A DNA stretch of 64,000 nucleotides from Escherichia phage vB_Eco_T-01. The DNA lies in the sequence record PQ438391.1; one strand, written 5' to 3'. Position 1 is the stretch's first letter. Each line of letters opens with the position of its first letter. Shown piece by piece: positions 56,739-60,500 of this stretch. Under the pieces are notes generated by a model, which saw nothing but the letters and a program-made list of their open reading frames with translations, was not told where the DNA came from and searched no databases. The position numbers and the translations under genes are program-made.

Positions 56739-57530
56739 TTATACTCTTGAACCATATATTGTGCCAACTTTAGTCCAAGTTGGAGCATTACCAGTAACAG
56801 CTTTACCAGCCGCACCGCCCGAGTGAACAGTTCCTCCAGTACCGCCTTGAATATATGAAGACTTGCCAGCAGCTCCCAAATCTCCACCATTTCCTCCATA
56901 GTGAACCCCAGAAACAGTACCTTTACCAGGAGCAGAAATTGTACCAGCAGATGCTGCTGCTGCGCCACCTCCTGCTGCGCCAGCTGCGCCAAATGGACGA
57001 CCTCCGCCGCCACCAAATATCATATCCATTTGAGGGAAAGGATGGTATCTAGCACCAGCGCCGCCACCGCCACCGCCACCAATAATACCGTTATTGTTTA
57101 TTCTTAAACGAGTTCCAATTCCGTTATTTATTGCAGTTCCTCCTGCTCCACCAGCAGAGTTACTTCCGCCATTTCCTCCCCGACCCAATACATGAACCCC
57201 GCTATTAATATTTAAGGTAACATACGCATTAGTTAATGAGCTAGGAAAATCTAAGCATGGAACACCAGTAGATTGAGAAACGATATTGCCTGTAATTGTA
57301 ATAACAACAGGAGTACTGCCTTGGGCTTTTATCCAATTTATTAGTGTGTCTTTATTATAAGAATTGCTAGCACCAACGCTATAATATACTTCTTTAGATT
57401 GCCCAGCCATTGAACTCATCCAACCGGGAACTGAAACACGGACAGCTTTCATCGCAGCATCCATCCAGCGTTGTCCAGTTTCATTCACGGCAGATTCACC
57501 AATCCAACCAGGAACACCTACAATTGCCAT
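56739..57530 (-). CDS. 38: long tail fibre tip adhesin gp38 (T2-type, glycine-rich motifs flanking variable segments)
   Basis: 263 aa; conserved N-terminal domain then poly-Gly blocks (GGGGGGGAG, FGGGGG). Confidence 0.9.
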   Translation of the reverse strand: MAIVGVPGWIGESAVNETGQRWMDAAMKAVRVSVPGWMSSMAGQSKEVYYSVGASNSYNKDTLINWIKAQGSTPVVITITGNIVSQSTGVPCLDFPSSLTNAYVTLNINSGVHVLGRGGNGGSNSAGGAGGTAINNGIGTRLRINNNGIIGGGGGGGAGARYHPFPQMDMIFGGGGGRPFGAAGAAGGGAAAASAGTISAPGKGTVSGVHYGGNGGDLGAAGKSSYIQGGTGGTVHSGGAAGKAVTGNAPTWTKVGTIYGSRV

Positions 57531-57543
57531 TAAAAATCCTTAG

Positions 57544-57559
57544 AGGGCCGAAGCCCTCT
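57544..57559 (-). terminator. UUCG-tetraloop hairpin between genes 37 and 38
   Basis: minus-strand GAGGGCTTCGGCCCTC after gene 37 stop, then U-run overlapping gene 38 RBS. Confidence 0.5.
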
Positions 57560-57560
57560 T

Positions 57561-60500
57561 TTACATAAGTTTAGATTCAAGTTCTTTTACACGAGAAGAA
57601 AGTGTTTTCACAGCTTCAACCAGAAGAGCAATCTGGGCTTGAGAAGAAACAGTGAGTATTTTATTACCCTTACTGTCTTCTGTTTCATGGACAGCTTCTG
57701 GTAAAACGTCTTGTAACGTTTGAGCTATAATACCCGCTTCAGTTTGAACAGGCTCACCGCCTATATATTCAGCTTTGTCATAGATTAAACCATCAAGTTG
57801 TTCAACCTTTTCGAGCGCGTTTTCAATAGGCTTGAAATTAGATTTCAAACGAATATCAGAACGAATATAAACGTTAGGAGCGTTGACGTTTTTCTCGGAA
57901 TAAACTTCACCCGAGGTGAATCTAACAACTTTAACATTGTTAGCCCACGCTTCTAAAAGCCCATCACCTACTTGTCTAAAACCGGTATCGCTATCACCTA
58001 TTGCAATTGAGTTACCACCCCATCCGTTGGATGTGTTAATACCAAGGGCACCGGTAGAACCGCAAGCCAATTTAGGAGCATAAAATGTTCCGTCCATATC
58101 AAAAGTCCAACGAGCCTGTTGCCCCGATGCGTTGTCACCACGCATGCGAATAATGCCTTGGCGCCAAGTACCAGAAACACCTAACCATCCAAATTCAAAC
58201 GATTGTCGATAACCCGCGTCAGTTAAAAAACTGTATCCAGAAAATAGCGGGTAATAAGCTTGACTTGTCTTGGAAATGCCACCCGTATTCGCTAAGAATG
58301 CAGAATTGTCGCGAGTCACATCTGAAATAGCAGAAAAGCTAACACTCCATTGTCCGGCAGCTTTAACTCGTGAATTAATGTTTCCATTAATAGTAATATC
58401 TTTATCAAAAGAAGTATTTTCGCCAAGACGAACAGTACCAGCAGTCATATCGATTGAAAACGGTCGTTTTCCATTCCAATCACCTTCAGTTGCTTTATTA
58501 TCGCCGTCTGAAGAGTTTTTGTCAGTCAGTAAAATATAGAAGCTTCCACCGTCATTTCGAAATAAAACGGAATTAGAACCTGATCTATCAGAATTACTCG
58601 TAATACGAAGACCCGTTTGGTTATTAATAGCAATTTCAGATTCTGCTACATAACGTTTTACTTTACCTGTGTCTACCAGGTTGTTAAGCATGTTAGCTAC
58701 TTGGCCTTTAACATAATTAGCCGGCAAAGAATCTACCGGGTCTTGAGTAGGACCAAAAGCGCCGATAACTTTTACGGTAGCATTATCAACTGTATGCCAA
58801 GTATAAGCTAATTGGTTGGCATAAGTACCCGATTCAACATAGATATCATATGTATTTCCTGAGGTATTAACTACAGCAATATCAGTAAGACCTGCAGCTG
58901 TTCTGGTATACATCACGGCGTTTAAACCTGCTGGGCGGTCATTACCAGTACGAAGAACAATTTCTGTTATAGCACACTGTGTAAACAGTCCAGTATTAAA
59001 TCCTTTACCACCAGTTATAGTAAATGAAACAGTAGAAGTAGATTGTGGCATCGTTACTGTAGCGAATTTATACCATCCAGCAGTTGCACCGTATGTTACA
59101 AATCCGGAATTGACCTTACGGTTTAATGTGGTATTCAAGTTAGCAAAATTACCAGAACCACCTGTAATATTACCGTCTGTTCCGATACGAATATTTCCAG
59201 CACCTAATTTACCAGGAGAGTAAAAATCACCGTTTTTATTAAATTCCCAACCTAAATCCTTTATAATCGCGCCAGTAGAACCGCCATCACCACCTTCATG
59301 ATAATGAACTCTAAAATTACCGCCATTAATTAAAGTACCAATAGAATAGCAACTATTATTTTGTACGTATCTCTGTTTAACAATTGGAACGTAAGTACTT
59401 GTATCTGTGCGATTAATATTCATATAGAACGGAGCACGGACGTTTTCATTATTTTGCGAGGCAAATGAACCAGCCCCTGCAGGTCTAACGGCATCAGTGC
59501 ATTCTGCATCAATATATGTCGACTGCCCTAATTGCATTCTAAAGTTGGCATTAATGCGAGAGTTACTGTTTATCGTAGTTAAAGCATTATTTTGATCTAC
59601 TATAAAAGAATCTCTTCCTAACCCAACCATGCCATCGCTTAATCCTATTCTCACAGGTCTTAAAGAGCTGTGAATGTCTCCACTTTCGCCTTCATTTTGA
59701 TTGGTTGGAATAATGTAAAAGTTACTTTCAGAACGACGGAAAATAGCGCCATATTCGGCGTTCCAAATTCTTAATGCATTTGCTGTTCCACCAAATTTAG
59801 CTTGTCCGTTTACAGATAATCCATTATTTGCAACTAAGCTTGATTCGGTTGTAATAGAACCAGAAGTAACAATACTACCTGAAGTTAATAAACCACCATT
59901 AACTCGGAGTTGAATAGGCCCGACAGTCGAACCAGGTGCAGGAGCTACGCGTTGAGAATAAAAATGGTAACCTTGCCCATCTGATACTTCAAAGACTGTT
60001 TCACGATTACGATCACCAGATGCGTTAAATGAATTTCCCCATGCTTTAACTGTAACAGGGCTTTTGTTTTGACCTGCGCGAGTACCACTGTTCCAATATA
60101 TACTTCTAGTACCATCTGCAGCCGTCGGGGCGTTAAACTGGAATCCCTGATTATCAGGTCCATCAATAATTATGCCTTTATTAAGACGAAAAGCTAATGT
60201 AGAATTAATACTTCCAGTTGCGGCATTAAAGCTAATACTTTCACCGCCGGTGGTTAACTTCAATATACCTGGGTTAACGTCTACACCTTCCTGAGTATTA
60301 ATATTAGTTTTGCCTTTACCGCGGAAATAATGACTCATTTTACCGCCAGCATTGTACCCAATATGCGTCTGGCCGTCTCCAGCATTGTTATTATCAGCTT
60401 GCGTTTGAACAGACAAGAAAGCGGCATTAGTGCCAGGCATAATCCATGTGGTGCCTTGGTCCTCGGAACGACCAAATATACCTTTACGAGTACTACGGAA

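Follow-up and report, generated by a model that had tools for sequence, protein, structure and literature searches.

Sequence and predicted structure point to a T2-type host-recognition tip, with a gp37 chaperone domain and a gp38 adhesin, on the long tail fibre of Escherichia phage vB_Eco_T-01

The long tail fibres of T-even phages are not all finished in the same way. In T4, gp38 is a chaperone absent from the virion, and gp37 itself binds the receptor (PMC3157838, PMC6851490). In T2 and T6, gp37 undergoes proteolytic processing at its C-terminus before gp38 caps it (PMC3157838). The gp37 of phage S16 cleaves itself after trimerisation at DLNVS^SDRRIKK (the caret marking the cut), which exposes the surface on which gp38 docks, and a DVYIR strand has been described as the docking tip (PMC7917993). 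In the S16 crystal structure, a single gp38 sits on the gp37 trimer and inserts tryptophan prongs into pockets on it, its glycine-rich part forming a polyglycine-II sandwich with the hypervariable segments as distal loops (PMC6851490). Exchanging gp38 from the second hypervariable segment onwards switches the receptor in relatives. Here, we analysed genes 37 and 38 in a 64,000-nucleotide stretch of DNA from Escherichia phage vB_Eco_T-01 (sequence record PQ438391.1), from now on referred to as the window. All coordinates are positions in the window and the tail-fibre tip genes lie on its minus strand. There is little doubt that this region holds the two genes of a standard host-recognition tip for a T-even long tail fibre, and that the fibre is T2-type and not T4-type. 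Its domain identities, motifs, variability pattern and predicted folds were established computationally.

Gene 37 (57561-61499) encodes a 1312-residue precursor of the distal subunit, identified from its open reading frame (ORF), from PHROG 1699 ('long tail fiber protein distal subunit', E=0) and from Pfam matches to Gp34_trimer and Peptidase_S74. Directly downstream of its chaperone-encoding end lies gene 38 (56739-57530), with 263 codons plus a stop. gp38 belongs to PHROG 2056 ('tail fiber protein; host specificity') and matches two Pfam models well above their cut-offs of 25 bits, namely GP38 (PF05268; 8e-69, 232.2 bits) and, over residues 1-42, Gp38_N (PF21721; 7e-18, 64.7 bits). A sequence search of the PDB aligned residues 8-261 with the S16 gp38 structure 6F45_D (1e-48) and also returned the receptor-binding domain of PP01 gp38, solved as a fusion (9v85; 7e-32). 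Over residues 1-148 the protein is 74% identical to T2 gp38. An AlphaFold2 (AF2) model built from a 65-sequence alignment reached a mean pLDDT (predicted local distance difference test) score of 92.5. It matched 6F45_D in Foldseek with E=2e-23 and template modelling (TM) scores of 0.77/0.82, and 9v85_C with a TM-score of 0.84, no further PDB fold scoring better than E=3. The predicted fold, which is a model and not an experimental structure, is thus a beta-helix with a polyglycine sandwich, as in 6F45_D.

Variability along gp38 was expressed as column entropy per segment, in bits, using an alignment of 110 sequences composed of the window protein, T2, S16 and 107 full-length database homologues. 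In this alignment, the C-terminal half consists of five glycine-rich motifs (GRMs) that are conserved and alternate with four hypervariable segments (HVSs), a layout of GRM1-5 and HVS1-4 as defined by Trojet 2011 (PMC3157838). Mean column entropy amounts to 0.32-0.78 bits for the GRMs versus 1.97-2.55 bits for HVS2-4, with HVS1 at 0.98 bits. Glycine makes up 48 of the 132 residues between positions 116 and 247 (36%) compared with 11 of 115 in the N-terminal part, and this richness is not a matter of chance.

The N-terminal attachment domain (residues 1-45; 57396-57530), delimited by Gp38_N, conservation and the model, contains three short helices (10-18, 23-29 and 38-41) with W9, W22 and W37, the counterparts of the S16 prongs. 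W9 is present in 103 and W22 in 102 of the 110 sequences, and position 37 is Trp or Tyr in 88. This domain is nearly that of T2, to which it is identical at 43 of 45 residues. The first part of the central beta-helix comes next (46-115; 57186-57395); it is made of strands in the AF2 model and moderately conserved (mean entropy 1.1 bits). GRM1 (GRGGNGG, 116-122; 57165-57185; 0.36 bits), in which G116, R117, G118 and G119 are invariant, leads into the mildly variable HVS1 (SNSAGGAGGTAINNGIGTRLRINNNG, 123-148; 57087-57164) with its conserved IGTRLRINN core. GRM2 (IIGGGGGGGA, 149-158; 57057-57086; 0.32 bits) has as its S16 counterpart the polyglycine helix 151-GGGGGGGG-158. Next comes HVS2 (GARYHPFPQMDMI, 159-171; 57018-57056), the most variable segment of all at 2.55 bits, in which ARYHPFPQMDMI is located; it shares 7 of 13 residues with T6 (YYSPFPQMRLT) and 1 of 13 with T2. 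GRM3 (FGGGGGRPFG, 172-181; 56988-57017; 0.49 bits) is identical to T6 at 10 of 10 positions. HVS3 (182-211; 56898-56987; 2.00 bits) includes a lineage-specific GGGAAAAS run and matches T6 at 12 of 30 and T2 at 5 of 31 positions. GRM4 (GGNGGDLG, 212-219; 56874-56897; 0.78 bits), with G213 and G215 invariant, precedes HVS4 (220-237; 56820-56873; 1.97 bits), where Q228 is the sole residue differing from phage Bas43. GRM5 (GGAAGKAVTG, 238-247) and the conserved C-terminal strands (NAPTWTKVGTIYGSRV, 248-263), together at 56742-56819 and with entropies of 0.67 and 0.90 bits, close the beta-helix, the model placing strands at 245-259.

An initial annotation, made from the DNA letters and a list of ORFs, had placed gp38 and the gp37 tail at coordinates that agree with the ORF map and the translations, and had described gp38 as a T2-type adhesin unlike the T4 chaperone, which the full-length alignment with S16 and the identity to T2 bear out. 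The four glycine strings it quoted and the string RYHPFPQMDMI are all found in the translation, and its view that glycine motifs separate variable segments holds for the conserved GRMs; GGGAAAAS (187-194), however, lies within variable HVS3 and is not a conserved motif, and GRM4 and GRM5 were absent from its list. RYHPFPQMDMI, which it had singled out as a variable segment, corresponds to HVS2. The role of receptor determinant that it gave to such segments is already published for the gp38 family (Trojet 2011, PMC3157838), in which swaps start from HVS2.

The window gp38 very probably recognises the nucleoside channel Tsx, because phages with near-identical gp38 proteins use this receptor and because HVS2 and HVS3 are T6-like. 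The protein is identical (263/263) in phages TB37, Geo and JLBYU24 and 99.6% identical in Kha5h, Phaginator, Kelasse and TadeuszReichstein (Bas43). From Bas43 it differs at one residue of 263, Q228 in the window corresponding to K228, and from AV114/AV115 at three residues (98.9% identity). For Bas43, knock-out spotting reported in the BASEL supplementary table gives Tsx as primary and deep-core lipopolysaccharide (LPS) as terminal receptor (PMC8594841), and in an independent 2026 preprint tsx was the top match in random barcode transposon sequencing (RB-TnSeq), with a fitness of about 14.6. AV114 and AV115 likewise use Tsx (PMC10844046). HVS2 and HVS3 are nearer to those of T6, the classic Tsx phage, than to those of T2, whereas the attachment domain and the gp37 tail are of the T2 type.

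The Tsx assignment carries caveats. Single HVS substitutions can switch the receptor, as in RB68, where Q206L changes it from OmpF to OmpW, and the window protein differs from Bas43 at Q228 in HVS4; yet Q is the commonest residue in that alignment column. Receptor data for TB37, Geo and JLBYU24, the phages with identical gp38, were not found in the literature, nor were data for RB18 and Kha5h. It should be noted that Bas43, AV115, Kha5h, RB18 and Shfl2 are not named in the main texts of the gp38 receptor papers and that the Bas43 receptor comes from supplementary tables.

The alternative that fares best keeps the same architecture but has this allele recognise OmpA, FadL, OmpF or a combination of these, by way of its T2-type N-terminal half or Q228. 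The N-terminal 115 residues are indeed T2-type (43/45 identical in the attachment domain and 43/70 in the following segment), as is the gp37 tail, one-residue receptor switches are documented in the family, and AV108, which carries a similar adhesin, uses OmpA, the difference being attributed to HVS3 and HVS4 (PMC10844046). We nevertheless consider this unlikely, as Tsx dependence of Bas43 and AV114/AV115 was found in three independent experiments, HVS2 and HVS3 resemble T6, and the N-terminal domain serves attachment and not specificity (PMC3157838). Somewhat less likely still is a functional effect of the chimeric make-up of this allele, whose attachment domain and gp37 tail are T2-type and whose specificity half is T6-like: together with Q228, this might extend recognition past Tsx to, for example, a second porin or particular Tsx loop variants.

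The other half of the tip is the end of gp37. Residues 1214-1312 (57564-57860) form a C-terminal intramolecular chaperone of 99 residues (Peptidase_S74), followed by the stop codon at 57563-57561 after ...KELESKLM. Pfam PF13884 matches residues 1214-1271 at the extreme C-terminus (1e-14, 55 bits, cut-off 22) and begins exactly at S1214. The motif S1214-D-I-R-L-K1219 places Ser at the first residue of the domain (codon 57860-57858) and Lys five residues further on (codon 57845-57843). A homologue search with the last 162 residues returned 45 proteins, mostly short or partial, a set adequate for a motif alignment and not for a family census. In the resulting alignment of 44 sequences, consisting of the tail and 43 database homologues, S1214, D1215, L1218 and K1219 are invariant. 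Using phmmer, SDIRLKS was aligned with SDRRIKK of S16 gp37 and with ADLRAKE of the crystal construct of the MyRF ICA domain, and a PDB sequence search with a 119-residue tail gave two weak matches, 6f45_A (8e-4) and 7dc3 (0.011). The AF2 model of the tail has pLDDT values above 89 across the chaperone part, with a helix at 78-83, strands between 88 and 134 and a long helix at 136-161 (fragment numbering). Foldseek matched it to 7dc3 (MyRF ICA; 3e-6), to 3gw6 (endosialidase, 'Intramolecular Chaperone'; 9e-4) and to 3gud (GA-1; 0.036), the endosialidase and GA-1 chaperones surfacing through structure prediction and Foldseek and not through direct sequence search. The reading of the last roughly 100 residues (57561-57860) as an intramolecular chaperone with a Ser-Lys motif, proposed in the initial annotation, is therefore corroborated by family, motif and fold, the domain being Peptidase_S74 from S1214 onwards. 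The TM-scores to 3gw6 are low (0.25-0.44) because the tail was modelled as a monomer while the domain works as an interdigitated trimer.

Upstream of the chaperone, residues 1151-1213 (57861-58049) form a distal beta-strand tip ending in ...NAPNVYIR, for which the alignment with S16 gp37 (6f45_A) and six beta strands in the AF2 model provide evidence; the NVYIR end is equivalent to the DVYIR strand described as docking tip (PMC7917993). In Foldseek, the tip strands matched the modelled 68-72-residue gp37 chains of 6F45 weakly (E 0.24-1.3). Over its last 299 residues gp37 is 69% identical to that of T2, which has the identical junction after NAPNVYIR and the same 99-residue tail. From the alignment with S16 gp37, the predicted cut in the window gp37 falls between R1213 and S1214 (NVYIR^SDIRLKS) and would free 99 residues, and residues 1151-1213 are predicted to become the docking surface for gp38 after cleavage.

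Could the S74-like domain instead stay uncleaved in the mature fibre, as an inactive relic or a structural cap? In close relatives the tail does accumulate more amino-acid changes than gp38, mostly 8-15 compared with 0-5, Phaginator with one each being the exception. Against retention, no variation occurs at Ser and Lys or in the SDxRLK motif around them, T2 has the identical junction and its gp37 is known to undergo processing, and docking of gp38 requires a freed tip. In addition, the S16 crystal models 68-72 residues per gp37 chain of the 204 on record, which is consistent with loss of the chaperone. We regard a retained domain as highly improbable.

That gp38 might be a T4-type assembly chaperone for gp37 folding, absent from the virion and leaving the receptor site to gp37, is hardly tenable. 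In its favour, gene 38 occupies the same position as in T4, and the name 'distal long tail fiber assembly catalyst' or 'tail assembly protein' is given to its orthologue in several database records. However, gp38 has no similarity to T4 gp38 (NP_049864; best BLASTP E=13), the gp37 C-terminus shows none to the T4 needle domain by sequence comparison, sequence and predicted fold fit the virion adhesins of S16 and PP01 for which crystal structures exist, relatives change receptor when gp38 is swapped, and the NCBI annotation of T4 itself calls the T2-type 'gp38' unrelated and an adhesin. The T4-type reading was accordingly rejected. Labels such as 'distal long tail fiber assembly catalyst', 'tail assembly protein' and 'tail protein and peptidase' are found for gp38 orthologues in many GenBank records. 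They are a persistent annotation error, the function of T4 gp38 having been transferred to an unrelated protein.

Taken with what is described for homologues, the two-gene tip would be assembled as follows. gp37 would be made as a 1312-residue precursor whose chaperone, S1214-M1312, makes the beta-structured end of the fibre trimerise and fold. The chaperone would then cut itself off between R1213 and S1214 using Ser1214 and Lys1219. The exposed trimeric tip (...NAPNVYIR) would be capped by one gp38, docked via the three-helix domain with W9, W22 and W37, giving the 3:1 stoichiometry expected from S16. Within the polyglycine sandwich of gp38, the GRMs would serve as scaffold and the hypervariable loops, chiefly HVS2-4, would touch the outer-membrane protein, probably Tsx. 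Short tail fibres may engage the LPS core afterwards.

Genes 37 and 38 are separated by a 30-nt spacer (57531-57560) containing a 7-bp hairpin with a cUUCGg tetraloop (57542-57559), directly followed by an AAGGA ribosome-binding site and a U run. The hairpin folds at -13.4 kcal/mol and is a terminator-like match; in a 56-nt context its stability does not differ significantly from that of shuffled sequence (z = -1.44). The case for a real hairpin comes from its conservation and its UNCG loop and not from the folding energy. T2, RB18, Kha5h, Phaginator and TB37 all carry exactly this 30-nt spacer, although their coding DNA on either side differs by 1-13%. At the same site, T4 (GGGGC-UUCG-GCCC) and S16 (AGAGCC-UACG-GGCUCU) have UNCG-loop hairpins with different stems. 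These observations suggest a conserved RNA element between gp37 and gp38, which may terminate or stabilise the transcript or tune translation.

Substitutions among close relatives are spread unevenly over the module. Compared with TB37, gene 38 has 21 nucleotide differences and no amino-acid change, whereas the 300-nt gp37 tail region has 40 nucleotide and 15 amino-acid differences. Across TB37 and Bas43 the tail region differs by 28-40 nucleotides and 8-15 amino acids, and from Phaginator by 3 nucleotides. This unevenness between gene 38 and the gp37 tail indicates that purifying selection acts strongly on the entire adhesin, also on its HVSs, and that the surroundings of the g37/g38 junction are a recombination mosaic with a breakpoint near it. 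The gp37-tail and gp38 module has 94-95% DNA identity with AV109, AV114 and AV115 (OR352939, OR352944, OR352945), phages assigned to Mosigvirus with a GC content of about 37.5% (PMC10844046). The surrounding 24 kb of the window are 94-96% identical to Tequatrovirus genomes, e.g. Kha5h and TadeuszReichstein. These identities fit an exchange of the fibre-tip module across genera, the window being Tequatrovirus and the AV phages Mosigvirus.

The gene order g37-g38-t matches that of T2, T4 and S16. Downstream of gene 38, holin gene t encodes 218 residues (56050-56706; Phage_holin_T 1e-116, Pfam). Two ORFs overlapping gene 38, at 56732-57016 on the minus and 56855-57107 on the plus strand, were rejected as genes and are by-products of GC-rich glycine and alanine codons. 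The converse idea, that the gp38 frame is itself a low-complexity artefact, was also rejected, given its strong family and structural support. Within gp37 there are two matches to Pfam Gp34_trimer, the domain by which the proximal long tail fibre subunit trimerises (2e-10; 59649-60026, residues 492-617), and these reflect repeat modules common to the proximal and distal fibre subunits. Just past the stop codon of the holin gene (56050), a terminator-like 14-bp hairpin lies at 55975-56007 on the minus strand, inside the 3' end of a convergent plus-strand ORF of 90 residues (55777-56049) that occupies the asiA position of related genomes. The hairpin could serve as terminator for the late t transcript.

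The finding is an annotation and not a discovery, and it advances no open question. The gp38 sequence is already present in several GenBank phage genomes, the cleavage mechanism has been described, the gp38 family has Pfam models and two crystal structures, and for near-identical alleles there are three receptor determinations. As annotation, it says that the phage uses a removable gp38 adhesin and not a T4-type gp37 needle, that the primary receptor is very probably Tsx, judging from homologues, and that replacing gp38 from HVS2 onwards could shift the host range, as demonstrated in relatives.

Comparison with known systems places the locus as follows. The gp37 chaperone resembles those of K1F endosialidase (3GW6), the GA-1 neck appendage (3GUD) and MyRF ICA (7DC3) in PF13884, in the Ser-Lys motif at the start of the domain and in predicted fold, but identity is 14-26% and the passengers, a tailspike, a neck appendage and a eukaryotic transcription factor, are unrelated. 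The T4 locus (gp38 and the gp37 needle) lies at the same genomic position and also has a UUCG hairpin between g37 and g38, but shows no detectable sequence similarity in gp38 or the gp37 C-terminus. The S16 gp37-gp38 tip complex (PDB 6F45; Dunne et al. 2018) has the same Trp-bearing helical attachment domain, beta-helix and polyglycine sandwich in gp38 and a gp37 S74 chaperone with an S-D-x-R-x-K cleavage motif. It differs in overall identity (~42%), in a shorter gp37 (749 aa) with a 112-residue tail and in its HVS loops. S16 is reported to use OmpC.

Among T-even phages, Bas43 (TadeuszReichstein, MZ501106) is closest, with the same gene order g37-g38-t and a gp37 that is also 1312 aa long. 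It differs by 22 nucleotides in g38, at most one of them non-synonymous, and by 8 amino acids in the gp37 tail. T2 gp37/gp38 (MH751506) shares the attachment domain (43/45), the gp37 junction with its 99-residue tail and the spacer hairpin, the last two being identical. HVS2-4 of T2, which uses FadL/OmpF, are essentially unrelated (1/13, 5/31 and 2/18 identical). T6 gp38 (P0068), the classic Tsx-binding adhesin, shows the reverse pattern: HVS2 is similar (RYHPFPQMDMI versus YYSPFPQMRLT), HVS3 partly so (12/30), GRM1 and GRM3 are identical and the probable receptor is the same, while its attachment domain is of another subtype (30/45 identical) and overall identity is ~55%.

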